Positions 8,812 through 60,690 of a stretch of 64,000 nt of DNA are shown here, piece after piece; position 1 is the first letter of the stretch; each line of letters begins with the position of its first letter. The stretch is from assembly GCA_041674705.1 (NCBI GenBank), contig JBAYVF010000004.1, forward strand, positions 38,516 through 102,515. The letters are read 5' to 3'. The stretch comes from Candidatus Omnitrophota bacterium. Lineage in GTDB: Bacteria; Omnitrophota; Omnitrophia; Omnitrophales; Aquincolibacteriaceae. The notes beneath the pieces were generated by a model that was not told the DNA's origin, searched no databases, and saw only the letters and a program-made list of their open reading frames with translations. The position numbers were made by a program, and so were the translations under genes.

Positions 8812-11800
8812 ATGGCCACGCATCACTCGGACATCATTAGCGGGATCGTCAGTTACTTCGCCAAGTCCAAGATCACGCCTCTCATTATCGCAGCGTCGCT
8901 TATTATCGGCGTGTTTGCGGTCATCAATCTTCCCCGGGAAGAAGAGCCGCAGATCTCGGTGCCGATGTTTGATATTTTTGTCGCTTATCCGGGCGCAGAT
9001 TCCAAGGAGGTCGAGCAACGGATCGTGACCCTTGGAGAACGCAAGCTCTGGGAGATCCCGGGCGTGGAATACGTTTATTCTACGATCGAGCCGGAAGGAG
9101 CGCTGATCATTGTTCGGTTCAAGGTCGGGGAAGATGTCGAAAAGAGCCTGATCAAGCTTTACACCAAGGTCTATTCCAATCTCGATTTCCTGCCTTCTGA
9201 CGCAACGCAGCCCCTGATCAAAGTCCGTTCGATTGATGATGTGCCGATTCTGACCCTTACTTTCCATGGTAAAGATAAAGATCCTGTCGTGCTTCGCAGA
9301 ACCGTGGCAAATGTCCAGAACATCGTGAACGCGATCCCCGATGTTTCAGAAACCCGCATTACGGGTGGCCGCAAACGTCAGTTCCAGGTATTTTTTGATG
9401 AAGAAAAGCTTAAGGCCCGGCTCCTGAACCCGCTTGAGATCACGCAGATCATCCGCTCCGCGAACGTGAAACAAAGTGCCGGACATCTTGAAAGCGCGCC
9501 GGAACTTGAATCGGTGGAGGCAAATTCGTTTTTCCGCACAAAATCCGATCTTGAGAATCTCGTGGTCGGCGCGAGCGCGGGGAGCGTGGTGACGCTCAAA
9601 GACATCGCGAAAGTCGTGGACGGTCCGGATGAAGAAGAACGCGCGTCGGAAATTTTCTTTGGACCCGCATCGAAGGAAAAAGACAAAGGTCCGTTTGATG
9701 CCGTGACGCTTTCGATCTCAAAACGTAAGGGCGCGAACGCGGCCCATCTTTCCGAGGTGATCCTGCACGCGATTAAAGAGCTTCCGGAAACGACGCTTCC
9801 CAAAGATGTTGAAATGACCGTAACGCGCGATTACGGGGAGACCGCGAAAGAAAAATCCAACGAACTGCTTTTTCATATGGCGATCGCGATCTTCGGCGTG
9901 AGTGTTCTGATCGCCTGGGTGCTTGGCCTGCGCGAGTCCGGGGTGGTGGCGATCGCGATCCCGATGACCTTGGCGCTGACGCTTGCCACGTTCTATTTTC
10001 TTGGCTATACGCTGAATCGCATTACGCTTTTTGCGCTGATCTTTTCGATCGGGATCCTTGTGGATGACCCGATCGTGGATGTGGAAAATATCGTCCGGCA
10101 TCTCCGGCTTCCGGACAATAAAGGAAAATCCATTCTGGATATCACGATCGAAGCCGTGAATGAAGTCCGCAGTCCTTTGATCCTCGCGACGCTTACGGTG
10201 ATCGCAGCCATCCTGCCGATGGCTTTTGTAAGCGGACTTATGGGCCCCTACATGCGCCCCATTCCGATCGGCGCAAGCGCGGCGATGATGTTCTCGATGT
10301 TCGTGGCTTTTGTCGCGACTCCTTGGGCCGCATACCAGATTCTCGGGAGGGCGTTCGCTCAGGGGAAGCTCAAAGCCCACCACGAAGGAGAGAAAGAAGA
10401 TTTTCTGACGCATCTTTATCGCTCCTACATGAATCCGCTCATTTATAACGCGAAGATCCGGCAATGGTTCTTGATCGGTCTCGGAACCTTGCTTGCGCTT
10501 GCGGTTTTGCTTGTGCCTCTCAAGTTGGTTCGCATGAAAATGTTGCCGTTCGACAACAAGAATGAATTCCAGGTGGTGCTCAATATGCCCGAGGGGACAC
10601 CCGCGGCGAAGACTCAGGCTGTGATCACGGAGATCGCGGATTATCTCGTCACCACGCCGGAAGTCAAAGACATTGAGATGTATGTGGGCTCGGCAGCACC
10701 CTATAATTTCAACGGGCTTGTGCGTCATTACTTTCTTCGATCAAAACCTTTCCAGGCGGATCTTCAAGTGAATCTGGCAGGAAAACATCAGCGCAAACGC
10801 CAAAGCCATGATATCGCCAAAGCGGTACGCCCGAGGATCCATGAGATCGTGAAAAAACACGGCGGCCATGTTCAGGTTGCAGAAGTCCCTCCCGGCCCGC
10901 CTGTTCTTTCGACGCTCGTGCTTGAAATTTATGGACCCACGCTTGAGGGCCAAACAAAGCTTGCGAAACAGATCGAAGGATTGCTCGCTTCCAGCGAAGG
11001 CGTGACCGACATCGATACCTATATCCAGTCACCGGAAAAGCTCATGCGCCTCCGTGTGAATACGCAGAAAGCATCCTTGAATGGAATTCCGGTCGCGCAG
11101 ATCGCTGAAGTTATCACAACCGCAGTCGGGGGAAAGACCGTGGATCTGGCGCACCTTTCTGAAGAATACGAGCCGGTGGAGATCCTTTTGCGTCTGCCCA
11201 AGGAAAAGCGTGCGGGGATGGAGAGTGTTCTCAATATGACGCTTCTCTCCCGGTATGGGAACCCGATCCCGGTACGGGAACTTGTGGATATCGAAAAGGA
11301 CACCAAAGACCCCGCGATCTATCACAAGAACCTTATGCGGGTCTCATATGTGATCGCGGACGTGGCAGGGAAGTTTGAAAGCCCGGCGTATGCGATCCTG
11401 AAACTCAAAAAAGAGATCGCAAAGATGCCGGTGCCTGTTAATCAAGAGGGCCAGAAGACGCTCGACCAACTTTTTAACGGCCAGCCGCAAACGACGGATC
11501 GCTGGACCTTGAAGTGGGATGGAGAATGGCAGATCACGTACGAAGTATTCCGTGATCTCGGGATCGCGTTCGTCTTTGTGCTTCTTCTGATCTACGCGCT
11601 TGTGGTTGGGTGGTTCCAGTCGTTTAAAACGCCGTGGATCATCATGTTGCCGATTCCGCTCACGCTTGTGGGGATTTTACCTGCGCACTGGCTCGGCGGC
11701 GTGTTTTTTACTGCGACTTCCATGATCGGGATGATCGCGGGTGCCGGGATCGTGGTCCGCAATTCCATTATTCTCGTGGATTTTATCGAAATGAGACGTG

Positions 11801-12036
11801 CGGAGGGGATGCCCCTTGAAGAAGCCGTGATCGATGCCGGGGTGAAGCGCTTCAGGCCGATGCTTTTGACAGCGGCGGCGGTAGTCGTCGGCGCATCGGT
11901 CATTCTGTTCGACCCGATCTTTCAGGGTTTAGCCGTCGCCTTGATGGCGGGGGAGATCGCCTCGACGATCCTTTCTCGAACCGCAGTTCCTGTTTTCTAT
12001 TACATGATGGCTAAAAAAACAGGGACTCGGGACTAG
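8812..12036 (+). CDS. RND efflux transporter permease (AcrB/CzcA-type)
   Basis: 1074 aa. 12-TM RND architecture with large periplasmic loops. Confidence 0.85.
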   Translation: MATHHSDIISGIVSYFAKSKITPLIIAASLIIGVFAVINLPREEEPQISVPMFDIFVAYPGADSKEVEQRIVTLGERKLWEIPGVEYVYSTIEPEGALIIVRFKVGEDVEKSLIKLYTKVYSNLDFLPSDATQPLIKVRSIDDVPILTLTFHGKDKDPVVLRRTVANVQNIVNAIPDVSETRITGGRKRQFQVFFDEEKLKARLLNPLEITQIIRSANVKQSAGHLESAPELESVEANSFFRTKSDLENLVVGASAGSVVTLKDIAKVVDGPDEEERASEIFFGPASKEKDKGPFDAVTLSISKRKGANAAHLSEVILHAIKELPETTLPKDVEMTVTRDYGETAKEKSNELLFHMAIAIFGVSVLIAWVLGLRESGVVAIAIPMTLALTLATFYFLGYTLNRITLFALIFSIGILVDDPIVDVENIVRHLRLPDNKGKSILDITIEAVNEVRSPLILATLTVIAAILPMAFVSGLMGPYMRPIPIGASAAMMFSMFVAFVATPWAAYQILGRAFAQGKLKAHHEGEKEDFLTHLYRSYMNPLIYNAKIRQWFLIGLGTLLALAVLLVPLKLVRMKMLPFDNKNEFQVVLNMPEGTPAAKTQAVITEIADYLVTTPEVKDIEMYVGSAAPYNFNGLVRHYFLRSKPFQADLQVNLAGKHQRKRQSHDIAKAVRPRIHEIVKKHGGHVQVAEVPPGPPVLSTLVLEIYGPTLEGQTKLAKQIEGLLASSEGVTDIDTYIQSPEKLMRLRVNTQKASLNGIPVAQIAEVITTAVGGKTVDLAHLSEEYEPVEILLRLPKEKRAGMESVLNMTLLSRYGNPIPVRELVDIEKDTKDPAIYHKNLMRVSYVIADVAGKFESPAYAILKLKKEIAKMPVPVNQEGQKTLDQLFNGQPQTTDRWTLKWDGEWQITYEVFRDLGIAFVFVLLLIYALVVGWFQSFKTPWIIMLPIPLTLVGILPAHWLGGVFFTATSMIGMIAGAGIVVRNSIILVDFIEMRRAEGMPLEEAVIDAGVKRFRPMLLTAAAVVVGASVILFDPIFQGLAVALMAGEIASTILSRTAVPVFYYMMAKKTGTRD

Positions 12037-12073
12037 GGACTCGTTCCTCGAAAGAGTTTTGACGAGTCCCGAG
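12022..12073. repeat. REP-like GGGACTCG/CGAGTCCC palindromic element (copy 1), overlapping the RND stop codon
   Basis: GGGACTCGGGACTAGGGACTCG...CGAGTCCCGAG. The same motif family is present at 17758-17867 and 60626-60690. Confidence 0.6.
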
Positions 12074-12088
12074 CAACGGGGGTTTATT

Positions 12089-12292
12089 ATGACCATGGAA
12101 AAAATAATTCGCGTGATGGCGGGAACTTTCATTTTAGCAAGCGTCGCTCTGGCGATCTGGGTAAGCCCCTGGTGGCTCGTCTGGACGGCGCTTATCGGCG
12201 TGAATCTTATCCAGTCCGCCTTCACCGGTTGGTGTCTGGCCGAAAAGATCCTCAAGAAATTCGGCGTCCCTGGTTCCTGTTGCAGTCAATAG
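12089..12292 (+). CDS. DUF2892 (YgaP-like) small membrane protein
   Basis: 67 aa with two TM helices and a C-terminal GWCLAEK motif. GGGGG Shine-Dalgarno 7 nt upstream of ATG 12089. Confidence 0.55.
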   Translation: MTMEKIIRVMAGTFILASVALAIWVSPWWLVWTALIGVNLIQSAFTGWCLAEKILKKFGVPGSCCSQ

Positions 12293-12306
12293 CCGATATT
12301 ACCCCA

Positions 12307-12363
12307 TGTAACACCGGGTGTTAAAACGGTGTCATTTCCCCGAATGTAAGACCGGGTGTTACA
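12307..12363. promoter_or_regulatory. Two tandem 17-19-bp palindromes TGTAACACCGGGTGTTA and TGTAAGACCGGGTGTTACA (putative regulator or enhancer sites)
   Basis: Seen directly at 12307-12323 and 12345-12363. They lie 45-105 bp upstream of the TTGACA and TGGCAC elements. Confidence 0.4.
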
Positions 12364-12382
12364 TTTGGGTGAGGCCCTTTGA

Positions 12383-12426
12383 TTGACACTCCTTCCGCCT
12401 TCGGGCAGAATGGCACCACTTTTAAT
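12383..12426 (+). promoter_or_regulatory. Candidate gatCAB promoter(s): TTGACA-17-CAGAAT overlapping a sigma54-like TGGCAC-N5-TTAAT
   Basis: TTGACA at 12383-12388, CAGAAT at 12406-12411, TGGCAC at 12411-12416. The -12 element lacks GC, so the sigma54 assignment is weak. Confidence 0.35.
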
Positions 12427-12443
12427 CACGGGTCGGGAACTTG

Positions 12444-12566
12444 CCCCGTTAGAGATTCACGAGAAGAAATTGTGCGAGATTGATTTTTAATGAAAACATT
12501 TAAAGTGGTAGACATAGATAGCCAGACAAGCGGAAGCGCCCTAGGCGCTTCCTATCTCTAACGGGG
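12444..12566 (+). promoter_or_regulatory. Leader hairpin: 11-bp inverted repeat CCCCGTTAGAG...CTCTAACGGGG enclosing about 100 nt, with an inner 9-bp hairpin, ending 5 nt before the gatC ATG
   Basis: Arms at 12444-12454 and 12556-12566. Inner GGAAGCGCC-CTA-GGCGCTTCC at 12532-12552. The same arms recur at 45314-45416. Confidence 0.5.
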
Positions 12567-12571
12567 TAAAC

Positions 12572-12853
12572 ATGGAAATCAATATCGATAGAGTTGCGGA
12601 ACTTGCGCGGCTCAATCTTAAAGCCGAAGAAAAAAAGAAGCTCGAAAAAGACCTCGGGGCGATCCTCGACTACGTCAAAAAACTGGATAAGCTGGATACG
12701 TCCAAAGTCGAGCCCACGAGCCATGTCCTTAATATGGAGAACGTGTTCCGCCCTGATGAAGCCAAGTCTTCGGATGCCGCCTCAAAGGCCCTGGAACATG
12801 CCCCTCAGACCGAAGGCTCTTTCTTCAAAGTCCCCAAGATCGTGCAAAGATAA
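12572..12853 (+). CDS. gatC: Asp-tRNA(Asn)/Glu-tRNA(Gln) amidotransferase subunit C
   Basis: 93 aa with a typical GatC sequence (LARLNL..EE...L..IL.YV..L). Lies upstream of gatA. Confidence 0.9.
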   Translation: MEINIDRVAELARLNLKAEEKKKLEKDLGAILDYVKKLDKLDTSKVEPTSHVLNMENVFRPDEAKSSDAASKALEHAPQTEGSFFKVPKIVQR

Positions 12854-12887
12854 GTGCTAAGTGATAAGTGTTAAGCGATAGGCAGAA

Positions 12888-14321
12888 ATGAATACACCAC
12901 TCCATAAACTGACAGTGAAGGAAGCGATCGGGTTCTGCCAAAAAGGCGGGGCTCAGGAGCTTGTTCATGCTTTAACCGAGAGGGCCCAAAAGTTGAATCC
13001 TCTCGTGAACGCGTTTTTGCGGTTTAGTGCTTCCGATATCAACTTACCGCTTACCGCTGAACGCTTACCCCTCGCAGGTGTTCCCGTTTCTATTAAAGAC
13101 AACATCTGTATCGATGGCAGGGAAGTGACGTGCGCGTCGAAGATCCTGGCTAAGCACGTGCCTCCTTATAATGCCACCGTGATCGAGAAATTGAAGAGCG
13201 CGGGTGCGACACTTTTCGGCCAATGCAATATGGACGAATTCGCGTTCGGTTCTTCGTGCGAAACCTCGGCGTTCGGTCCGTGCAAAAATCCCTGGGACCT
13301 CACGCGCGTACCCGGAGGCTCGAGCGGTGGCTCTGCGGCTTCCGTCGCGGCAGACATGACGCTTGCGGCGCTCGGGAGTGACACCGGCGGTTCGATTCGT
13401 CAGCCCGCGGCGCTTTGCGGTGTGGTCGGCGTCAAGCCCACTTACGGCCGCGTGTCGCGCTACGGTCTTATCGCGTTCGGTTCAAGCTTTGACCAGATCG
13501 GTCCCATTACAAAAACCGTGGAAGATGCCGCCATTCTGCTGAATGTGCTGAGCGGCCACGACCCGAAAGATTCCACGTCCGCGTCTCAGTCCGTTCCTGA
13601 TTTTACGCAAGCGCTCAAGCGCGATGTGAAGGGCCTCAAGATCGGCCTTCCGAAAGAGTACTTCATTGAAGGGATTGATCCCCAGATCGAGAAAAGCGTT
13701 CGCGAAGCCGCGGAGATCTATAAGAAGCTCGGCGCCGAGATCAAGACGATCAGCTTGTCGCATACCGAACACTCGGTTGCGGTCTACTATATTGTGGCCG
13801 TGGCGGAAGCCAGCTCGAACCTTGGACGCTTTGATGGCGTCGAGTACGGCCTGAGGGTTCCCACAAAAGATCTTCGTGAAATGTATTTTGAAACGCGCGA
13901 CCAGGGGTTCGGCCAGGAAGCCAAGCGCCGCATTCTGCTCGGCACGTTCGTGCTCTCGGCCGGTTATTATGAGGCTTATTATCTGAAGGGCCAGAAAGTC
14001 CGTACACTTATTCGGCAGGATTTTGAGAAGGCGTTCAAGGAAGTGGACGTGATCTTGTCGCCCACCTCGCCCACGGCGGCGTTCAAGATCGGCGAAAAGT
14101 CCGCAGACCCGATCGCCATGTACCTTTCCGATATCTTTACGATCCCCGCGAACCTGGCCGGCATTCCCGCGATGTCGGTTCCGTGCGGTTTTACAAGCGG
14201 CGGTCTTCCCATAGGCTTGCAGCTTATGGCCAGGCCCTTTGACGAATCCACCATGCTCCGCGCGGCTTACGCTTTCGAGCAGGAAACCGGCATCTATAAA
14301 AAGAAACCGAAGTTAGACTAG
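12888..14321 (+). CDS. gatA: Asp-tRNA(Asn)/Glu-tRNA(Gln) amidotransferase subunit A
   Basis: Amidase signature GGSSGGSAASVAA. 477 aa. Confidence 0.95.
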   Translation: MNTPLHKLTVKEAIGFCQKGGAQELVHALTERAQKLNPLVNAFLRFSASDINLPLTAERLPLAGVPVSIKDNICIDGREVTCASKILAKHVPPYNATVIEKLKSAGATLFGQCNMDEFAFGSSCETSAFGPCKNPWDLTRVPGGSSGGSAASVAADMTLAALGSDTGGSIRQPAALCGVVGVKPTYGRVSRYGLIAFGSSFDQIGPITKTVEDAAILLNVLSGHDPKDSTSASQSVPDFTQALKRDVKGLKIGLPKEYFIEGIDPQIEKSVREAAEIYKKLGAEIKTISLSHTEHSVAVYYIVAVAEASSNLGRFDGVEYGLRVPTKDLREMYFETRDQGFGQEAKRRILLGTFVLSAGYYEAYYLKGQKVRTLIRQDFEKAFKEVDVILSPTSPTAAFKIGEKSADPIAMYLSDIFTIPANLAGIPAMSVPCGFTSGGLPIGLQLMARPFDESTMLRAAYAFEQETGIYKKKPKLD

Positions 14322-14346
14322 AGACTACAGACCAGAGACGACAGCG

Positions 14347-14562
14347 ATGACGAATAATTTGCATCATGCAGCTAAAAAGTATGTCGAAGTGATCGAGAAG
14401 ATTGAAAGAACCACCAATCCCAAAGAGTTGCAGGAACTTGAGGAGAAGCGGGTGGACCTGCACTGGAAGTTTATCGATCTGCTCAAAAAGCAGGGGATCA
14501 AATATAAAGACAGAGATCACGCAACCCGGATTGCCATACGGATTGCGCACGGAGAGTTATGA
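14347..14562 (+). CDS. Hypothetical small protein (71 aa) within the gatA-gatB insert
   Basis: ORF only. ATGA overlap with the next ORF. Lower GC than flanking genes. Confidence 0.4.
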   Translation: MTNNLHHAAKKYVEVIEKIERTTNPKELQELEEKRVDLHWKFIDLLKKQGIKYKDRDHATRIAIRIAHGEL

Positions 14563-14792
14563 CGACGCTTGAAATTGCTCGCATTTATACGGATCTGGTG
14601 AAGGCGGAGCGGGAGATTCCTGAAGCGGAGCACCAGGCCAAGGAAAAGATCAATGCTCTCCGGACCAAGTATCACGAGATCCTGATGGCAAAGATGCGGG
14701 AAGAACGGATCGATTTCTCCGATCGCTTCGACGCCGCAGCCAAGGCTTTCGATCTTGTTCGCGAAGAAGATTCAAAGTACGGTGGTAGGTAG
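14559..14792 (+). CDS. Hypothetical small protein (77 aa) within the gatA-gatB insert
   Basis: ORF only, charged and helical. Coupled to the previous ORF. Confidence 0.4.
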   Translation: MTTLEIARIYTDLVKAEREIPEAEHQAKEKINALRTKYHEILMAKMREERIDFSDRFDAAAKAFDLVREEDSKYGGR

Positions 14793-14835
14793 TTGCAGAG
14801 CATTTGTGCGGCGCCGCACGAATTGGAAATGAATT

Positions 14836-15006
14836 AGCTCGACGTCGAGCTTATTGAGATCAGGCTGGCAAGGCGGTTCGGGCAGTCGGGGGCCTTATAT
14901 CGTATATGATATACCTGCCTGCCGGCAGGCGGCAAAACAGTCGGCGCCGACTGTTTTGGCCAATAGTGTGGGGGAGCTAACCCCTCCCCACCGGACGCCG
15001 TCCGGT
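14836..15006. repeat. Cluster of five GC-rich perfect palindromes
   Basis: AGCTCGACGTCGAGCT (14836-14851). GCCTGCCGGCAGGC (14917-14930). AAAACAGTCGGCGCCGACTGTTTT (14934-14957). GGGGAG-ctaacc-CTCCCC (about 14970-14989). ACCGGACGCCGTCCGGT (14990-15006). Confidence 0.65.
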
Positions 15007-15024
15007 TGACAAGAATGGAGAGAG

Positions 15025-15591
15025 ATGAAGAAAGAGCCATTTGTGCCAAGCTTAGGCTCTGATGTAATTAAGAAGTTTTGTCAGTTGTGTGATTGGGCGT
15101 ATCAATCATGGCTAATGCAACGGACTCTTTTTGATGATAACCCTAATCTTTATGTTCTGGAAAAGGATAGTTTTCAGAGATTTTTTAGTCTTCTTAATAA
15201 TGTTACGCTCGAATATGCCCTTCAGCAGCTCATAAAGCTTCATGATCCGGCAATTATGAATGGCAAGATTAATCTGACGATTAATTGCATAGTCCAATAT
15301 GGCGACTGGGAAAAGAAGGTGAGGACGGATTTAAAAAGTCTTAGCGACGAGTTAGAGTTATTAGCCGGATGCCTGAGAGCGGCGAGGAATAAAGTTCTTT
15401 CTCATAACGATTTTCTGGCGTGCATGGAAAATGTGCCGATCGGTTGTTTTGAGGAAAACAAAGATAGGGATTATTTTGATAAGCTCCAAGAATTTGTAAA
15501 TATTGTTCATGATAAAACGATCGGCGGGCCTTATCCTTTTGATAGTTTGGTGCAAAGTTACACCCGCGAATTTTTGAGTGCGCTGAAATAG
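15025..15591 (+). CDS. Hypothetical protein, low-GC cargo gene; possible HEPN-like Rx5H motif
   Basis: 188 aa, AT-rich codon usage. Motif RNKVLSH near residue 120. No confident family match. Confidence 0.5.
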   Translation: MKKEPFVPSLGSDVIKKFCQLCDWAYQSWLMQRTLFDDNPNLYVLEKDSFQRFFSLLNNVTLEYALQQLIKLHDPAIMNGKINLTINCIVQYGDWEKKVRTDLKSLSDELELLAGCLRAARNKVLSHNDFLACMENVPIGCFEENKDRDYFDKLQEFVNIVHDKTIGGPYPFDSLVQSYTREFLSALK

Positions 15592-15633
15592 CATTAGTAA
15601 CTGCGGCTATTCCTGTGCGCTAAAGTAATCAAA

Positions 15634-16197
15634 ATGATTCAAAGGGGAAGCCTGGTGGACGACAAATTGTTGAATGACATAGCAAAAAGCTTTGTTGTGA
15701 CGGCGCTTAGCTATACCAACCAGAACTGGCGGACATTTTGTCAGTCTTGGAGCAAGGCGTTGAAGGCTGATTTGTCAGGAGACGCTGAGGCTAAACTAGA
15801 ATTTTCGATGGCCATTATCGGGTTGGGCTTGTCACGCATTAAACGAGATTCTTTGGAAAATACTGCATCGCGTGAAGTTGGCAAGGTGCAGGCTGAGAAG
15901 ATTAGAGATTATTTGAGGGTGATGTCGGGCAACTTAGGTGATGAGCCATGGGAAAAGGCAATGAAGTATCATAATGCTTATGAAAATTGTCCCAATTTCG
16001 ATTCGAGATTTGATAAACCTCCTTTTGAAAGCCGCGTGGAAGCAATAGCCGTGGTTTTATTCGATTCTTTTAAAATAGCGCATCTTATTAAAATAGGAGG
16101 TCGCATCTCTTACGAACCTCTTACGCTTATGATGCTTGCTGGTACAGTTTTGGCAGCTTACCAAGACTGTAAAAACACATTTCAGAGTTTATTATGA
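15634..16197 (+). CDS. Hypothetical protein, low-GC cargo gene
   Basis: 187 aa, AT-rich. Partner of the previous ORF. No recognisable domain. Confidence 0.5.
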
Positions 16198-16325
16198 ACT
16201 ACGAACCTGTGATCGGACTTGAGGTCCACGTACAGCTGAAAACAAAGAGCAAGCTGTTTTGTTCGTGCTTCCGCCACACAGCGCGGCGGACAGGCGACGG
16301 AATTCGGTTAAGGAATGAATTATGA
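16194..16325 (+). pseudogene. Diverged duplicate of the gatB 5' end (25 gatB codons, then unrelated sequence to a stop)
   Basis: [25 protein letters not shown] matches gatB residues 1-25 ([25 protein letters not shown]) with about 22 synonymous nt differences. Its ATG overlaps the stop of the upstream cargo ORF. Confidence 0.7.
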
Positions 16326-17773
16326 ATTATGAGCCCGTGATAGGTTTGGAAGTGCATGTTCAATTGAAGACAAGATCAAAGTTGTTTTGTTCTTGTTCCA
16401 CCACTTTTGGCGAGGAAGGTAATAAGAATACATGCCCCGTGTGTCTCGGCTGGCCGGGGTCATTGCCGGTACTGAACGAAGCGGCGCTGAAACTCGGGAT
16501 TCGGGTGGGGCTTGCGCTTAATTGCAAGATCGCCGAGCGGCTCAAGTTCGACCGGAAGAATTATTTTTATCCGGATCTTCCCAAAGCCTACCAGATCTCG
16601 CAATTCGATATGCCGGTGAACGGCCGCGGCGAACTTCTCATCGAAACAAAAGATGCGGAAGGAAAAATGATCGAGCGAAAGATCGGGATTACTCGTGCGC
16701 ACCTGGAAGAAGATGCCGGGAAGCTTCTGCATGAAGGCATCGCGGACGGCAGTCTCGTGGACTACAACCGCGGCGGTATCCCGCTTCTTGAGATCGTCTC
16801 CGAACCGGATCTCGGAAGCCCGCAAGAGGCGCATGACTATCTCACCGCGCTCAAGGCCATCCTTCAATATGTGGAAGTGAGCGACTGCGATATGGAAAAG
16901 GGGAGCCTTCGCTGCGACGCGAACGTGTCGGTGCGGCCCGTGAGCCAGGAAAAACTCGGGACCAAGGTCGAGATCAAGAACCTGAACTCGTTCAAGATGG
17001 TGGCGCGAGCGATCCAGTACGAGATCGAACGGCAGACGGAAGCGCTTGAACGCGGGGAGGCGATCGTCCAGGAAACGCGACTTTGGAGTGACGCCGAGGG
17101 CATGACGGTTTCCATGCGTTCCAAAGAAGATGCCCACGACTACCGTTATTTTCCCGAGCCCGACCTTGTGCCTTTCACCTTGTCGCGCGAAGTCGTAGAG
17201 GCGATCCGGAAGACTTTGCCGGAATTGCCGCTTGAGCGCGCGAAGCGGTTCATCAAAGAATTCGGCATTCCGGAATATGATGCCTATGTGCTGGTGCAGG
17301 AGAAAAAACTGGCCAACTATTTTGAATCCTGCATTCGCGAAGGCGCCGCGCCGAAGCTCGCGAGCAATTGGATCCAAAATGAACTCTTGGCGCTGCTGAA
17401 TGTGAAAAACATCGCGATCGATGAGTGCCTGGTTTCGCCCCACGCGCTTGCCGGACTGATCCGGCTGGTCGAAAAAGGGATCGTAAGCGGGAAAACCGCT
17501 AAAGATGTTTTTCAGGAAATGGCGGCGACCGGTAAAACGGCGGACGTAATCGTTAAAGAAAAAGGCCTCACGCAGGTTTCGGATACCGGGCTCATTGAAA
17601 AAGCCGTTGAAAAAGCGATCGCCGCGAATCCCACGGCCGTCGCGGAATTCAAGGCCGGCAAACAAAAAGCCCTCGGCGCGCTGGTGGGTGCCGTTATGAA
17701 AGAAACCGGCGGCAAGGCGAATCCGAAAGTGGTTAATGAAATTCTCATTAACAAGCTGGGGACTCGTAGCTAG
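16322..17773 (+). CDS. gatB: Asp-tRNA(Asn)/Glu-tRNA(Gln) amidotransferase subunit B
   Basis: 483 aa, canonical GatB. Its last codons (GTRS*) are supplied by the REP-like element. Confidence 0.95.
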
Positions 17774-17867
17774 GGACTCGCACCTCGTGAAAAAAACTAC
17801 TCGTACCTCGTACCTCGTATCTCGGGACTCGAAAAAACGAGGAACTAGTCCCGAGTCCCGAGTCCCG
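17758..17867. repeat. REP-like GGGACTCG/CGAGTCCC element (copy 2), with CTCGTAC x3 and GTCCCGA x3 tandem units
   Basis: GGGACTCG x3, CTCGTACCTCGTACCTCG, CGAGGAACTAGTCCCGAGTCCCGAGTCCCG. Overlaps the gatB 3' end and the nominal tsaD 5' extension. Confidence 0.6.
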
Positions 17868-17876
17868 CTCTACACC

Positions 17877-18875
17877 TTGGGGGTAGAAACTTCCTGCGAC
17901 GAAACGTCGTGTTCGGTGCTGAAAGGCAAAGACACGATCCTCTCCAACGTGGTTTCCTCCAGTCTTTTCCGGCACAAGAAATTCGGCGGCGTGGTGCCCG
18001 AGATCGCGTCCCGGCACTGCATGGAACAGATCCAGTGCGTGTTCGAAGAAGCACTTCGACAGGCTCAGTGCAAGGCGCAGGATTTAGATCTGATCGCGGT
18101 CACGCAGGGCCCGGGTCTTATCGGTTCGCTTCTCGTGGGAGTCTCCTTCGCAAAGTCGTTGGCCTATCAACTTGGAATTCCCATCGTGGGTGTGAACCAT
18201 ATGGAAGCGCATCTCGTCGCGAATTTTTTCGGGACTCCGGAACCCAAACGCTATATCGGGCTCCTTGTTTCCGGCGGGCATACGATGCTCACGTTCTGCG
18301 AAAAAGGGAAGATCCATATTCTTGGCGAGACGGTGGATGACGCGGTCGGCGAAGCATACGACAAAGTCGCGAAGATCATGGGTTTGAGTTATCCGGGCGG
18401 GCCTATCCTTGATAAACTTGCGAAAGAGGGGAACCCGTGCGCTTTTCATTTTACCAGGCCGAAGCAGGACGAGCGTTTCAACTTCAGTTTCAGCGGCGTG
18501 AAAACGGCCGTGCTTTATCAATTTCAGGATCCGAAAACGGGGAAGCCGAATCCAGCGGCGCCTTCGGTGAAAGATATGGCGGCGAGTTTTCAGCACGCGG
18601 TGATCGGATGGCTTGTGGAAAAAGCGCTCGACGCGGCGGAATTTAAAAAGGCTTTCGACATCGTGGTGGGCGGCGGCGTGAGCGCGAATTCTTATTTGCG
18701 GGAGAAGCTCACGCGGGACGGCGCCGCAAAAGGCATCAAGGTCTGGTTCCCGCCGTTCGTGCTGTCGACCGACAACGCAGCCATGATCGCACGCCGGGGT
18801 TTTGAGCTTTTTAAACGAGGCTGTTGTTCTCCGCTCAAGATGACGGGAAATCCCGCTTTAGCTTTGGGCCGCTGA
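17877..18875 (+). CDS. tsaD: tRNA N6-adenosine threonylcarbamoyltransferase TsaD (Kae1/YgjD family)
   Basis: GVETSCDETS and HMEAHL motifs. The ORF-track start at 17736 is rejected. TTG at 17877 is the nearest in-frame start before the conserved N-terminus, so the start is uncertain. Confidence 0.8.
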   Translation: MGVETSCDETSCSVLKGKDTILSNVVSSSLFRHKKFGGVVPEIASRHCMEQIQCVFEEALRQAQCKAQDLDLIAVTQGPGLIGSLLVGVSFAKSLAYQLGIPIVGVNHMEAHLVANFFGTPEPKRYIGLLVSGGHTMLTFCEKGKIHILGETVDDAVGEAYDKVAKIMGLSYPGGPILDKLAKEGNPCAFHFTRPKQDERFNFSFSGVKTAVLYQFQDPKTGKPNPAAPSVKDMAASFQHAVIGWLVEKALDAAEFKKAFDIVVGGGVSANSYLREKLTRDGAAKGIKVWFPPFVLSTDNAAMIARRGFELFKRGCCSPLKMTGNPALALGR

Positions 18876-18887
18876 TATTTTAAAGTC

Positions 18888-18966
18888 GTACTTGGTCGTT
18901 GGTACATAGTACTTAGAAAAACAAAAACTGTCGTTACACTAAGTACCAAGTGCTATGTACCATGTA
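18888..18966 (+). promoter_or_regulatory. Long imperfect hairpin in the mgtC leader
   Basis: GTACTTGGT..TGGTACATAGTACTTAG pairs with CTAAGTACCAAGTGCTATGTACCA. About 17 bp of stem with a 7-nt bulge, directly upstream of the Shine-Dalgarno AAAGGAGG. Confidence 0.4.
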
Positions 18967-18985
18967 CTCATCAAAGGAGGTTTTT

Positions 18986-19459
18986 ATGTGTTCTTTTATG
19001 GGCCTGACAGCGCATGACATTGAAAATTTTACACGGCTTCTAACGGCTACCGGACTCGGAGCCCTCATCGGGCTTGAGAGGGAATACAATGGTAAGGAAG
19101 CCGGTTTCAAGACTTATACGCTGGTCTGTCTGGGGTCGGCCCTTATGATGATCATTTCCGCGGACATTTTTTTGATCTACAGAGGCCTTGCGGTTGTGGA
19201 TCCCTCGCGTATTGCGGCGCAAGTGGTGACAGGGATCGGTTTTTTGGGAGCCGGGGCGATCATTCGCGATCAGCAGGGCGTCCGGGGACTGACGACGGCG
19301 GCGGGGATCTGGGCGGTTTGCGGTATCGGTCTTGCTTGCGGTCTTGGTTTTTTTAAACCCGCCATGTTTACGACGCTCTTGGTGCTTATTGTGCTTGTCC
19401 TGTTCCAAAAATTCGAAAAGGATATTCTTCCCAAGAAGAAATCCCACCATACAATTTAA
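18986..19459 (+). CDS. mgtC: MgtC/SapB family membrane protein
   Basis: GLEREYNGKEAGFKTYTLVCLGSAL and VVTGIGFLGAGAI motifs. Start set at the ATG preceded by AAAGGAGG. Confidence 0.7.
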   Translation: MCSFMGLTAHDIENFTRLLTATGLGALIGLEREYNGKEAGFKTYTLVCLGSALMMIISADIFLIYRGLAVVDPSRIAAQVVTGIGFLGAGAIIRDQQGVRGLTTAAGIWAVCGIGLACGLGFFKPAMFTTLLVLIVLVLFQKFEKDILPKKKSHHTI

Positions 19460-19478
19460 CGGACGGATATTTCCACGA

Positions 19479-19507
19479 TTGACACTCCGAGAGCAAAAAG
19501 CTAGAAT
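19479..19507 (+). promoter_or_regulatory. Sigma70-type promoter for hisG (TTGACA-17-TAGAAT)
   Basis: TTGACA at 19479-19484 and TAGAAT at 19502-19507. Confidence 0.45.
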
Positions 19508-19516
19508 CCGCTCCCT

Positions 19517-20398
19517 ATGACAACAGTGAACAAGCTTAAAATTGCATTACCCAAGGGCAGTCTCGAAGAAGCGACCTATAATCTCTTCAAGCGGGCCGGC
19601 TTCAAGATCAACGTTAACTCCCGTTCCTACATTCCTTCCATTGATGATCCCGAGATCGAAGTGGTCCTCTTCCGCCCCCAAGAGATGTCCCGTTATGTTG
19701 AAGACGGCATTGTGGATTGCGGCCTCACCGGGCATGACTGGATCGTGGAAAATGACTCCGATGTGGTCGAACTTTGCGAGCTTCAATATTCCAAGCGCAC
19801 CTCCAATCCTGTCCGCTGGGTTCTGGCCGTGCACGAATCGTCGCCCTTTAAAAGCGTCAAGGACCTGAATGGCAAAAAGATCGTGACCGAGCTCGTGGGT
19901 GTAACGAAGCGCTATCTTAAAAAGAACAAAGTGACCGCGGAAGTGGAATTCTCGTGGGGGGCCACGGAAGCCAAACCGCCGCGTCTTGCGGATGCCATCG
20001 TGGAAGCCACCGAGACCGGCTCCAGTCTTCGCGCGAATAAACTCAAGATCATTGACACCGTGATCGTTTCGATACCGAAGTTCATCGCAAATAAGAAAAG
20101 CGTGAAAGACTCCTGGAAAAAACACAAGATGGACAATCTGATCATGTTGCTTCAAGGCGCGATGCGTGCCCAGGAAAAGGTCGGCCTTAAGATGAATGTC
20201 GAGAAGAAGAACCTGCAAAAGATCCTGAGTCTTCTCCCGGCCATGAAAAAACCGACCATTGCGAATCTTACGGATAAGAACTGGCTGGATGTCGAGACCA
20301 TCATCGACGAGTCTGTGGTCCGTGAGTTGATCCCGGCGCTCAAGGCGGCCGGCGCCTCAGGCATCATCGAATATCCGCTCAATAAAGTTATTCCCTAA
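19517..20398 (+). CDS. hisG: ATP phosphoribosyltransferase, long form
   Basis: [10 protein letters not shown]...GLTGHD N-terminal domain plus C-terminal regulatory domain. 293 aa. Confidence 0.9.
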
Positions 20399-20424
20399 AA
20401 CCATCATCCAAAGGAGTTCCATTC

Positions 20425-20523
20425 ATGCCTTGGGCTCGTAAACAGCGCAAGAAAAAGATGAACAAGCATAAGCGCAAAAAAAAGTTGCGCCGGAACCGTC
20501 ACAAGAAAAAAGACTGGTCCTAG
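20425..20523 (+). CDS. bS22-type small basic ribosomal protein (AURKAIP1/DUF1713-like), 32 aa (not in ORF track)
   Basis: MPWARKQRKKKMNKHKRKKKLRRNRHKKKDWS*. AAGGAG Shine-Dalgarno 8 nt upstream. Pattern matches bS22 (RKxRMxKHKxKKL..RH). Confidence 0.65.
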   Translation: MPWARKQRKKKMNKHKRKKKLRRNRHKKKDWS

Positions 20524-20545
20524 TTTTAAGTCACAAAGCTGCAAG

Positions 20546-20604
20546 GCCACAAGGACACAAAAGAAATGCTCGCGAGGCATGTGTCCTTGTGGCTTTGTGT
20601 CTTT
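20546..20604 (+). terminator. Strong hairpin (14-bp stem GCCACAAGGACACA/TGTGTCCTTGTGGC) plus T-rich tail after the bS22 gene
   Basis: Arms at 20546-20559 and 20580-20593, then TTTGTGTCTTT. It could also act as an attenuator before ispE. Confidence 0.55.
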
Positions 20605-20617
20605 AAGAGGGGTCTCC

Positions 20618-21493
20618 ATGCAAGCGCTCACTCTGAAGAGTCCGGCGAAACTCAATCTCTACCTCCGTATCCTCGGAAAACGGCCGGACGGATATCACAA
20701 ACTCCTGACGCTCTTTCACCGTATTTCGCTTGTCGATACGATCGTGATCCGTAAAAGCTCTCAAGGTTTTAAACTTTCCACAAATATTGCCTCACTTGAA
20801 ACCGGGGAAGGCAATCTCATCACCCGGGCCTACCGGGAGCTTCAACGGAAATTCCCCAGGTTGGGCGGGGTTTCTGTGCGGCTTACCAAGCGCATTCCGC
20901 TCGGCGCCGGATTGGGAGGCGGTTCCAGTAATGCCGCGTCATTTCTGCTAGGCATGAAAAAGCTTTTCAGGCTCAAGATATCTCGGCAAGAGCTTTTTTC
21001 TATAGGGAAAAGACTTGGCGCGGACGTGCCGTTCTTCCTTTCAGAGGCGCGGCAAGCCATGGCTTGGGGGATCGGGGATAAGCTGCAAAAAGTGCCTTCG
21101 GGCGTCCGTTTGGGGTTCCTTTTGTTGGTGACCGATCAGGGGCTGAACACGAAAAAAGTCTATCAGAAACTCGCCAGGAGCGGGCGGCCCCTTTCCTTGA
21201 CAAAGGAAAAGCGTATTGCTAGAATCCTGCGCTCTTTTCTCGCAAGCAAGAGGGTTCGGGAGGCTTCGGAATTCGCGCGAAATGATCTGGAAATCCCGGC
21301 GTTTCGCTTGATGCCATCCATTCCTAAAGCGATCACGGCTCTCAAAAACTTTGGCGTTCCCTATGTCCTTATGAGCGGAAGCGGGGCCACGGTCTTCGCA
21401 GCGTTCTCCAGCCGGGAAGAAGCTTTAGACCTATCGAAGAGATTGAAAGAAGTTCCCTTTCCTTTTCGCAAGGTGATTTGTCACTCATACTAG
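20618..21493 (+). CDS. ispE: 4-diphosphocytidyl-2-C-methyl-D-erythritol kinase
   Basis: KLNLYLRILGKRPDGYH and PLGAGLGGGSSNAA (GHMP kinase) motifs. Start moved to MQALTLKSP. Confidence 0.85.
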   Translation: MQALTLKSPAKLNLYLRILGKRPDGYHKLLTLFHRISLVDTIVIRKSSQGFKLSTNIASLETGEGNLITRAYRELQRKFPRLGGVSVRLTKRIPLGAGLGGGSSNAASFLLGMKKLFRLKISRQELFSIGKRLGADVPFFLSEARQAMAWGIGDKLQKVPSGVRLGFLLLVTDQGLNTKKVYQKLARSGRPLSLTKEKRIARILRSFLASKRVREASEFARNDLEIPAFRLMPSIPKAITALKNFGVPYVLMSGSGATVFAAFSSREEALDLSKRLKEVPFPFRKVICHSY

Positions 21494-21513
21494 TGGTACA
21501 TAAGAGTTGAGGT

Positions 21514-21828
21514 TTGGAAGTGAAGATCACGGAAATTCGCGTTTTTCCCCAAGCGAATAAAGAAAACAAGTTGTGTGCCTTTGCCAACATCACCTTTGAC
21601 GGTTGTTTTGTGGTGCGTGGCCTGAAGGTTCTCGAAGGGTCGAAAGGCCTTTTTGTGGTGATGCCGTCCCGCAAGGTCAAAGGCGATGATTACCGGGACG
21701 TGGCGCACCCCATCACGGCGGAGTTTAAGGATTATATTCAGAGCGAGGTCTTGAAAGCCTACGAGCTTTTTATCGAACATCAGCCCCAGGCCCAAGCGCT
21801 CAATGACGACGATCCGTTTGAGCGTTAG
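21514..21828 (+). CDS. spoVG: SpoVG family protein
   Basis: MEVKITEIRV...FVVRGLKVLEGSKGLFVVMPSRK. TTG start with GAGGT Shine-Dalgarno. Confidence 0.8.
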   Translation: MEVKITEIRVFPQANKENKLCAFANITFDGCFVVRGLKVLEGSKGLFVVMPSRKVKGDDYRDVAHPITAEFKDYIQSEVLKAYELFIEHQPQAQALNDDDPFER

Positions 21829-21829
21829 A

Positions 21830-22078
21830 ATGTCTTTTTTTGTTTATGGTCTCGAGAGTAAAAAAGACGGTCGGCATTACGTGGGAAGCGGTGAAGATGT
21901 TGACGAAAGATTGCGGCGGCACAATTTAGGCGATTATCGTTATACTAAAGGTCATCGGCCGTGGATTGTGATTTACAAGGAATCCTGCAAGTCACGCTCA
22001 GAAGCTGTAAAGCGGGAACGGTTTTTTAAATCCGGCGTAGGGCGCAAGTTCTTAAAAGAAATTATTAGTTCGAAATAA
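21830..22078 (+). CDS. Small stand-alone GIY-YIG nuclease-domain protein
   Basis: FFVYGLESKKDGRHYVGSGEDVDERLRRHN...RPW...ESCKSRSEAVKRERFFKSGVGRKFL. Start moved to MSFFVYG, 1 nt after the spoVG stop. Confidence 0.7.
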   Translation: MSFFVYGLESKKDGRHYVGSGEDVDERLRRHNLGDYRYTKGHRPWIVIYKESCKSRSEAVKRERFFKSGVGRKFLKEIISSK

Positions 22079-22086
22079 CAAAGTAT

Positions 22087-22157
22087 TGCCCCGTGGTGAA
22101 ATGGTATCACACTGCCCTTTGGAGGCAAGGTTTCTGGTTCGAGCCCAGACGGGGCAG
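22087..22157 (+). tRNA. tRNA-Gln (anticodon UUG)
   Basis: Hand-folded cloverleaf. Acceptor TGCCCCG/CGGGGCA with U1:A72 and G73. U8. D-arm GTGA-AATGGTA-TCAC. Anticodon loop CTTTGGA. T-arm TCTGG-TTCGAGC-CCAGA. No CCA is encoded. Confidence 0.8.
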
Positions 22158-22415
22158 ATTTTAAGAATCAAAGAACGGTTTTAAGGGAGCCCTTTTCCGC
22201 CTGAGGCGGATTCGTCCGCAAGGCGAATCCGATGATGAACGGATTCGCCTCTGGCGAAGGAGGCAAGGTTTCTGGTTCGAGCCCAGACGGGGCAGATTTT
22301 AAGAATCAAAGAACGGTTTAAGGGAGCCCTTTTCCGCCTGAGGCGGATTCGTCCGCAAGGCGAATCCGATGATGGACGGATTCGCCTCTGGCGAAGGAGG
22401 CAAGGTTTCTGGTTC
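22121..22415 (+). repeat. Tandem 138/137-bp repeat (about 2.15 copies), each unit starting with the 3' half of tRNA-Gln (GGAGGCAAGGTTTCTGGTTCGAGCCCAGACGGGGCAG)
   Basis: Units begin at 22121, 22259 and 22396. The last unit is truncated. Units contain several small GC hairpins (CCGCC-TGA-GGCGG, CGGATTCG..CGAATCCG). Confidence 0.75.
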
Positions 22416-58009: not shown

Positions 58010-58177
58010 GAGTTATCGAGAGGAAAACGATGTTCAGAAGCTTAAATCATAACCTTGAGCAGTGTCAACGGATATGTTACAGTGTGGCCTCAAACCGTAC
58101 AGCGTTTCGCGTACGGAGTACGGCGAAGGGTATTCCCTAATACGCCGTACGCCTTACTCCTTACTCGGAGATTTTTC

Positions 58178-60625: not shown

Positions 60626-60690
60626 GGGACTCGTACCTCGGGACTCGTTTTGGTTCCTCGTTTTTACGAGTCCCTAGTCCCGAGTCCCGG
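60626..60690. repeat. REP-like GGGACTCG/CGAGTCCC element (copy 3)
   Basis: GGGACTCGTACCTCGGGACTCG...CGAGTCCCTAGTCCCGAGTCCCG, upstream of hom. Confidence 0.6.

Follow-up and report, generated by a model that had tools for sequence, protein, structure and literature searches.

A variable gene islet at the gatA–gatB junction in Omnitrophota, with scars suggestive of flank-anchored recombination

Enterobacteria and Pseudomonas are known to carry islets between core genes in which genes for defence and toxin-antitoxin systems gather, and whose content turns over through recombination in the flanks. The gatCAB operon of a Candidatus Omnitrophota bacterium (assembly GCA_041674705.1, contig JBAYVF010000004.1) appears to house an islet of this kind. 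In a stretch of 64,000 nucleotides (nt) of this contig, positions 38,516 to 102,515, here called the window and numbered from its first letter, gatA and gatB are separated by four open reading frames (ORFs) of 71, 77, 188 and 187 amino acids (aa), named o71, o77, o188 and o187, and by a second, truncated gatB start, named gatB′. The locus and its relatives share with the known islets conserved flanks, a hypervariable interior, empty sites, cargo rich in toxin-antitoxin and abortive-infection (Abi) genes, reshuffled modules and a lack of mobility genes among the ORFs scanned. Unlike those islets, this one lies inside an essential operon, at an ancestral 4-nt stop/start overlap, its cargo is with one exception co-oriented with the operon, and truncated ends of both essential genes have been left behind. 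We think it probable that the gatA|gatB junction is a recombination hotspot shaped by homologous and illegitimate recombination anchored in its flanks, and not by a site-specific element.

Three other described systems bear on the locus. Displacement arrays of Rhs, contact-dependent inhibition and type VI secretion system effector-immunity genes have been proposed to arise via homology-facilitated illegitimate recombination (Kirchberger et al. 2017, PMC5361080; on the displacement of Rhs C-termini that paper refers to Jackson et al. 2009). As in these arrays, the conserved part of a gene serves as anchor, incoming DNA would replace a gene end, and the old end is kept as an adjoining orphan; unlike them, gatB loses the 5' end of a housekeeping enzyme gene and not a variable 3' toxin tip, and the replacement encodes nearly the same protein, with no new function gained. 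Experiments have demonstrated the recombination process itself in E. coli, Acinetobacter, Pseudomonas stutzeri and Streptococcus pneumoniae (PMC3240628; PMC5361080, its references 41, 42 and 47). There, homology anchors one end, the other end joins without it, and breakpoints vary accordingly, which agrees with the varied end-points of the gene remnants at gatA|gatB; here, unlike in the experiments, the process is read from sequences. Integrative elements that target gene ends (tRNA, tmRNA or protein-coding genes) likewise leave the end of the gene directly repeated: one copy is truncated, while the other is functional and divergent in sequence. The window differs in that no recombinase was found among the ORFs scanned and no element body lies between its copies, in the variable end-points among loci and in the presence of gatA remnants as well.

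The operon and its insert are laid out as follows.
12572–12853, + strand: gatC, first gene of the operon (Pfam GatC, E=2.4e-22)
12888–14321, + strand: gatA, left conserved flank of the hotspot (Pfam Amidase, E=4.7e-155)
14347–14562, + strand: o71, 71 aa, first gene of the o71/o77 module
14559–14792, + strand: o77, 77 aa, second gene of the o71/o77 module, predicted three-helix bundle
15025–15591, + strand: o188, 188 aa, HEPN AbiU2-family protein, with an RNKVLSH motif at 15385–15405
15634–16197, + strand: o187, 187 aa, mostly alpha-helical, from a tiny family, probable start GTG at 15655
16194–16325, + strand: 43-aa ORF read from the gatB remnant (Pfam GatB_N, E=1.9e-8)
16322–17773, + strand: gatB, functional gene and right conserved flank (Pfam GatB_N, E=1.6e-120; GatB_Yqey, E=1.3e-52)

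An earlier note, made from the letters of the window, had described the four ORFs and the second gatB start, and all are present where it placed them. The gap from gatA to gatB is exactly 2,000 bp long and has a GC content of 45.4%, against 55.7% for gatA and 54.2% for gatB. The note had also called the last two ORFs AT-rich relative to the host, which is borne out by the GC content at third codon positions (GC3): of the four ORFs, solely o188 (0.41) and o187 (0.43) are clearly low compared with host genes (0.65–0.66), while o71 (0.57) and o77 (0.62) are near-host in composition. For o187, NCBI holds a 180-aa version, implying the GTG start. An assembly chimera is ruled out, because two further assemblies from other pipelines, making three in total, show the identical arrangement: one in ENA over 12.5 kb with 2 mismatches, and one in Logan over 3.45 kb with no differences. 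The absence of an integrase or transposase, likewise remarked on earlier, holds for the called genes of 9115–21591 and for the ORFs scanned in 20.5–24.5 kb, and a scan of 12300–17000 against Rfam at E<=1 gave no match. By its GatB relatives, whose best identities are 90–91%, the source belongs to Candidatus Omnitrophota, and GatA is 79–90% identical at the aa level to the full-length GatA matches among the clade relatives described below.

The gatA|gatB junction was compared across about 30 members of the clade, defined by at least 75% GatB identity; the relatives, whose loci carry L-numbers, are all metagenome-assembled genomes, one per species. In L004/L094, L013, L023 and the outgroups the TGA stop of gatA overlaps the ATG of gatB (ATGA), and the junction reads …CTATGAAC… or …TTATGAAT…; this 4-nt overlap is the ancestral empty site. 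Gap lengths in the clade lie between 0 and 3,119 bp, and an all-against-all comparison of the gaps revealed recurring modules in varying combinations. Pfam families found in the gaps include the following.
MazE-like antitoxin with Fic/Doc (Phd-Doc): L001, L016, L017, L090, L092, L095
RhuM with Fic: L009, L018, L098
AbiJ_NTD4: L018
T5orf172/MUG113: L015, L019
MNT-type nucleotidyltransferase (NTP_transf_2) with a downstream partner: L147
DUF2971: L032
zf-CDGSH: L002, L006, L014, L017, L092
Rieske with FMN reductase (FMN_red): L003, L089

No recombinase, integrase or transposase family was matched among the scanned gap ORFs of the relatives. The predicted cargo modules are all co-oriented with the operon, save for one 60-aa antisense ORF in L095. 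Conserved flanks, a variable interior and empty sites in relatives are thus all found at this junction. Three relatives of lower GC (L020, L021 and L022; GatB 75–76% identical) have no gatC or gatA within 8 kb upstream of gatB; in these, gatB is either wholly separate from gatCA or preceded by an insert of more than 8 kb.

Truncated copies of the flanking genes recur at the borders of the modules. Besides the window, three loci carry gatB 5' remnants.
L009: gatB nt 1–34, overlapping the stop of a 341-aa cargo ORF
L012/L097: gatB nt 1–36, still overlapping the gatA stop
L095: gatB nt 1–~79, then a degraded Fic gene

With the window, the end-points at the four loci fall at nt 34, 36, ~79 and ~90. 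In L095, about 880 bp including the degraded Fic gene separate the two gatB copies. Remnants of the gatA 3' end are present in L032, L089 and L090, and two of them overlap the gene that follows just as gatA did ancestrally. The variable end-points, together with scars of both flanking genes, argue against a site-specific recombinase dedicated to gatB and fit illegitimate joins made in the course of homologous exchange.

Exchange between lineages, with crossovers in the flanks, is evident at two places: in the divergent 5' end of the window's gatB, described below, and in the pair L015 and L019. The T5orf172 cassettes of these two species are 94–100% identical and the first 100 nt of their gatB genes 93%, whereas the body of gatB is 75–85% identical and gatCA 78%. 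This pattern points to a recent inter-species transfer, with the right-hand crossover inside the 5' region of gatB. The T5orf172/MUG113 gene, of the GIY-YIG superfamily, lies directly upstream of gatB in both (7266–8100 in L015 and likewise 7266–8100 in L019), and the pattern is reminiscent of free-standing homing endonuclease genes, both in how they spread and in their co-conversion tracts.

The start region of the window's gatB is composed of the following segments.
16194–16308, + strand: gatB′ remnant, consisting in a gapped alignment to relatives of gatB nt 1–76, a 25-nt insertion and gatB nt 77–90
16194–16269, + strand: first part of gatB′, gatB nt 1–76
16270–16294, + strand: insertion of 25 nt in gatB′, frame-shifting, able to form a small hairpin
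16295–16308, + strand: second part of gatB′, gatB nt 77–90, an in-register 13/13 match in at least five relatives
16309–16321, + strand: junction of 13 nt, TAAGGAATGAATT, in which a Shine-Dalgarno-like AAGGA is accompanied by a tandem copy of ATGAATT, the heptamer at the start of gatB
16322–16426, + strand: replacement 5' patch of the working gatB, in AT-rich synonymous codons, roughly its first 100 nt

The stop TGA of o187 overlaps the ATG of the remnant, and the stop of the 43-aa ORF overlaps the ATG of gatB; at the latter, Tandem Repeats Finder (TRF) reports a perfect repeat of period 7 (16315–16332, 100%). The two gatB starts form a direct repeat of 77 nt (16191–16267 and 16319–16395; 71% identical, 128 nt from start to start). 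Across the first 75 coding nt they differ at 23 positions, where about 22 had been counted before, and the homology to gatB claimed for the upstream copy is confirmed by its GatB_N match. The differences fall in 19 codons, and because 18 of these 19 are synonymous, both copies diverged while they were functional genes: the sole difference in protein is one conservative K/R change, and none of 200,000 simulated sets of 23 random substitutions left one aa change or fewer.

Which copy is the original was judged from identity to 15 relatives. Among themselves these are 84.1% identical over gatB nt 1–90 and 85.8% over nt 91–300. The gatB′ remnant is 83.9% identical to them over nt 1–90, whereas the working gatB reaches 68% there and 83.2% over nt 91–300, its identity recovering near nt 106. 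Since the remnant is at clade identity and nt 1–90 of the working copy fall below it, the remnant and the gene body together behave like the orthologous gene. Composition agrees: GC3 of the remnant is host-like (0.64), while that of the working gatB is 0.40 in the first 25 codons and 0.68 in the remainder, the largest drop at a gatB start among clade members of similar GC. In its behaviour the truncated upstream copy is thus the gatB 5' end that was there originally, and the working gene appears to begin with a foreign, AT-rich patch of ~100 nt, which would have arrived with its own ribosome-binding site. With this polarity, the four ORFs fall outside the interval between the two gatB copies. 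The earlier note had supposed that an element carried a gatB-like 5' segment that kept its target intact; its logic stands, but the polarity is reversed, the upstream copy being the apparent host original. Its match of 25 codons followed by unrelated sequence was right as to homology, but the fragment ends later, as gatB nt 77–90 resume after the 25-nt insertion.

Two other accounts of this region were tried and rejected. Selection for an accessible mRNA does not explain the AT-rich recoding, which leaves the start region no more open: the real sequence has a minimum free energy (MFE) of −17.4, compared with −19.5 for a chimera and −20.8 ± 3.6 for random synonymous versions, and unpairedness of the start region is no higher (0.43 vs 0.61). 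The hexamer TTATGA, which occurs where o71 meets o77, o187 meets gatB′ and gatB′ meets gatB but at none of the window's other ATGA junctions, was considered as a recombination core and dropped, since the ancestral gatA|gatB junction accounts by descent for two of the three sites.

The genes nearest gatA, o71 and o77, form a compact mobile two-gene module that is widespread in Omnitrophota and able to sit inside essential operons. The co-oriented genes overlap by 4 nt, the ATG of o77 overlapping the stop of o71 (TTATGA), and both are found at 83–93% aa identity in L009, L010, L032, L091, L095 and L098. Outside gatAB, the pair lies between sufB and sufC in another Omnitrophota bacterium (L176, 4789–5252, and also L177), in a defence island of Shedu, Fic and HigA type (L173, 4789–5225) and downstream of tsaD in L029 (10567–10988). 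DNA homology of these copies extends over the two ORFs alone (437 nt), and their flanks are not shared. In L005, L017, L120 and L147 o77 is found without o71. No family was matched by o71 in Pfam, PADLOC, PHROG or NCBIfam. For o77, 221 homologues were found, without a Pfam family, and every one with a named source is from Omnitrophota; 30 that were aligned are 64–91% identical to it. Its AlphaFold2 model is a three-helix bundle with a mean predicted local distance difference test (pLDDT) score of 92.6 and has no match in the PDB. As in type II toxin-antitoxin pairs, these are small, overlapping, co-oriented genes that travel together; neither matched a toxin or antitoxin family in the four family databases just named, and the PDB held no known fold like that of o77. 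Whether the two might be paralogues was also considered, and no such relationship was detectable.

The sequence of o188 places it in the family HEPN_AbiU2 (PF18734; it scores 37.7 bits where the cut-off is 26.8, with E=2e-9), with residues 16–182 of 188 aligned to positions 9–189 of 193 in the profile, and 57 of its 58 database homologues carry the same domain. Apart from a self-cluster at 100%, these homologues are 37–52% identical to it and are uncharacterised metagenomic proteins. The HEPN motif is intact (R121-N-K-V-L-S-H127, of the form RNxxxSH and within the R-x4-6-H pattern), and R121, H127, N128 and D129 are invariant in an alignment of 18 sequences. AbiU2 is one of the lactococcal Abi HEPN groups, which are predicted RNases (Anantharaman et al. 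2013, PMC3710099), and o188 is by family a predicted RNase of the abortive-infection or toxin type. It resembles lactococcal AbiU in matching the profile over its whole length and keeping R-x5-H; it differs in lacking the partners listed for that group (Sel1-repeat genes, restriction-modification operons; PMC3710099) and in residing in a housekeeping operon. A further putative HEPN-type protein is the 341-aa cargo protein of L009 (6863–7888), which has no Pfam family and contains an RHLIAH motif (R-x4-H).

Its neighbour o187 is far rarer. A full HMMER scan of 1.84 billion representatives found 5 remote homologues alone, each on a contig of less than 1.3 kb and hence too short to show a gene neighbourhood, a word-based search returned its own protein and nothing else, and a metagenome scan found no relative. 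No match was obtained in Pfam, NCBIfam, PADLOC or PHROG, and the predicted structure, confident and mostly helical (pLDDT 88.9), has no significant structural match. That the cargo resembles a defence or toxin-immunity module, as had been suggested, is therefore upheld in one part, by the HEPN_AbiU2 match of o188 above the Pfam cut-off, and not in the other, a toxin-immunity relation between o188 and o187. Most homologues of o188 stand alone, in neighbourhoods that vary and are at times defence-like; those in L083, L085, L169, L170 and L172 have unrelated neighbours or none and no o187 partner, and P0063, a homologue of o187, is not preceded by any coding sequence. Conserved linkage of the two was thus not seen across the few loci sampled, nor does o187 match an antitoxin domain (DNA-binding, or MNT as for HEPN toxins) in those databases, so that the relation is not supported, on a small sample. 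A mobile-element origin of the pair was also pursued, and neither protein gave a tblastn match in the plasmid or phage collections. Both genes are absent from all 160+ related loci and are strain-specific.

These observations suggest a scheme in which selfish and defence-type modules accumulate at the junction and shuffle between species, carried by ordinary homologous recombination for which conserved sequence at the ends of gatA and gatB serves as anchor; the other end would sometimes join illegitimately, leaving truncated copies of the flanking genes at module borders. The earlier note had taken the region for a foreign insert, and the empty sites of L004, L013 and L023 confirm an insertion; a single element is not confirmed, o71/o77 being near-host in composition and widespread. 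The insert appears instead to be composite, with at least three layers. The o71/o77 module would have settled beside gatA, and the low-GC o188/o187 block would have come in immediately before gatB, the stop of o187 and the start of gatB overlapping. A patch of about 105–120 bp would then have pushed aside the 5' end that gatB had until then, at about nt 90. It would have supplied a Shine-Dalgarno sequence of its own together with a version of roughly the first 100 nt of gatB that is divergent and AT-rich, while the displaced end survives as the 43-aa gatB′ ORF.

A promoter-like site lies upstream of gatC (12383–12411, TTGACA-17-CAGAAT). Because the insert has no terminator-like site on the + strand and two weak promoter-like sites only, by an E. 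coli-type consensus that may not fit Omnitrophota, its cargo is probably transcribed by read-through as part of gatCAB. The overlaps at o71|o77, o187|gatB′ and gatB′|gatB would keep translation coupled to gatB, which would either stay coupled in this way or use the new Shine-Dalgarno sequence, and the 43-aa ORF could act as a translational-coupling relay.

Several points weigh against this scheme. A single genome per species leaves the timing and direction of the transfers undecided. In L095 and L009 both gatB copies are typical clade alleles, and the polarity test is informative for the window alone and weakly for L012, which shows the same tendency. A 5' patch without cargo is odd for displacement by an incoming module. 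Genome, metagenome, plasmid and phage searches yielded no donor for o188/o187 or for the patch. In a check for microhomology, the junction resembled the stretch before gatB in L006 and L017, but 23 of 500 shuffles reached this likeness, which is not significant. The promoter and terminator scans carry the caveat of their E. coli-type consensus.

The alternative that survives best, though we consider it unlikely, assigns the opposite polarity: the o188–o187 block would have come from a related donor, with that donor's first ~90 nt of gatB, and been joined illegitimately 13 nt upstream of the native gatB. The stop/start overlap that makes gatB′ contiguous with o187, as if the two had travelled together, suits such an origin. 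So do allele affinities, gatB′ being nearest to the alleles of L001, L002 and L018 and the working 5' end nearest to that of L010, which shares the left part of the gap, its homology to the window stopping at 14913. A native gene, however, would then be atypical (68% vs 83%) solely over the duplicated span, with recovery near nt 106, and its GC3 of 0.40 in that span against 0.68 for the gene would go unexplained, selection for an open mRNA start failing by the MFE comparison to account for the recoding.

Next comes the scar of a site-specific integrative element (a phage, an integrative and conjugative element or similar) at the gatB 5' end, which would have brought a gatB-like 5' segment to make the gene whole, its body since deleted, with gatB′ as attL and the AT-rich working end as attR; we think this improbable. 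The topology fits, with a host-like truncated left copy and a divergent right copy fused to the gene body, and AT-rich replacement ends like the one seen here are typical of element-borne att regions. The ~880 bp with a degraded Fic gene between the copies of L095 also speak for it, and remnant lengths in two groups (~35 nt and ~79–90 nt) could mean two specificities. Against this, no recombinase is found among the scanned gap ORFs or the called genes of 9115–21591, and 13 nt and the 25-nt insertion alone separate the window copies, the cargo lying outside the repeat. The four end-points share no crossover point, an integrase specific to gatB would leave the gatA 3' remnants unexplained, and the crossover in gatB of L015/L019 was homologous and without duplication. 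In addition, two degenerate gatB 5' patterns, devised to find a phage-borne gatB mimic, had no match in IMG/VR viral contigs. The site-specific mobility envisaged in the earlier note is for these reasons unlikely. A dedicated, integrase-independent mechanism that inserts cassettes at tightly coupled junctions of essential operons (gatA|gatB, sufB|sufC) is more doubtful still; in that case o71/o77 might be its agent or its archetypal passenger, and the duplicated gatA and gatB ends its products.

Tandem duplication of the gatB start in situ, followed by divergence, with the 43-aa ORF kept as a leader peptide or coupling relay, is very unlikely. It would account for the very compact junction with its 7-nt tandem copy of the start and for the exact overlap of both ends of the 43-aa ORF with its neighbours, but a divergence of 31% in 75 nt, nearly all of it synonymous, cannot arise while the remaining gene diverges normally, the sequences upstream of the two copies are unrelated, and the remnant is broken by a frame-shifting insertion. 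Ancestral membership of the four ORFs in gatCAB is hardly credible: o71/o77 are indeed near-host in composition, strongly conserved and in the same position in several relatives, but there are empty sites in the clade and outgroups and copies in unrelated contexts (the suf operon, the defence island, L029), and for o188/o187, missing from all related loci, it is already refuted.

Under the favoured reading of a flank-anchored hotspot, the extra gatB start is a scar, and the genome dynamics it records are real, fairly ordinary in kind and unusual in place, joining those of core-gene-flanked islets and displacement arrays. Accessory genes, several of toxin-antitoxin or abortive-infection type, can evidently colonise the inside of an essential and apparently translationally coupled operon, and the cell would tolerate these insertions because the essential gene has its start rebuilt in every rearrangement. 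The scars, the replaced 5' end and the cassette transfer would form a natural record of homologous and illegitimate recombination building a variable islet, free of detected mobility genes, in Omnitrophota, a phylum that is not yet culturable or manipulable. The leads that emerge are the HEPN AbiU2 gene with its rare helical neighbour, o71/o77 (also in a suf operon), the recently moved T5orf172 cassette and the heptamer spacers.

The non-coding parts of the gaps are punctuated by short GC-rich hairpin elements; in the window the spacers are as follows.
14315–14344: spacer from the gatA stop to the o71 start, 7-nt tandem repeats (TRF period 7, 3.6 copies)
14793–15024: hairpin-rich spacer (MFE z=−2.2)
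14806–14819, 14836–14851, 14917–14930 and 14933–14958: perfect palindromes in the hairpin-rich spacer
14968–15005: double hairpin in the same spacer

Window positions 14971–15007 are identical at 37 of 37 nt to 5915–5951 of L001, and a 28-nt core of this segment recurs inverted in L017 at 96% identity. The spacer palindromes were considered as genome-wide repeats, and no other copy was found within the 64-kb window. Judged by eye they are perfect, short (14–26 nt) and without the RYYYAAC / GTTRRRY cores of attC sites, which are imperfect palindromes of 55–140 nt. An integron would have IntI and attI beside its array, and no integrase was found near the locus in the window or the relatives.

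Heptamer spacers, made of three to five tandem 7-nt units such as GGGACTC, GATAAGT, AGACTAG or CTCGTAC, occur in the window at 12022–12043, 12849–12880, 14315–14344, 17754–17867, 58148–58166 and 60667–60689. The arrays often have their reverse complement nearby and can then form long imperfect hairpins. The gatA/gatB spacers of L005, L009, L010, L012, L016 and L024 are heptamer arrays as well, and arrays of relatives at the same gene borders have other unit sequences. Downstream of the islet, the long ORF of tsaD begins within gatB (17736–17856); its homology to the TsaD of relatives starts near residue 40, the true start is probably near 17856, and the DNA before that consists of heptamer repeats.

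Farther downstream, a 91-aa GIY-YIG protein (21803–22078) is encoded just upstream of tRNA-Gln(UUG) (22086–22158), with no integrase nearby and ABC permeases as the next ORFs. Behind the tRNA gene lies a tandem repeat with a unit of 137 nt (2.1 copies, 98% identical), which duplicates the 3' part of the tRNA at about 22258–22294 and partly at about 22395–22415.

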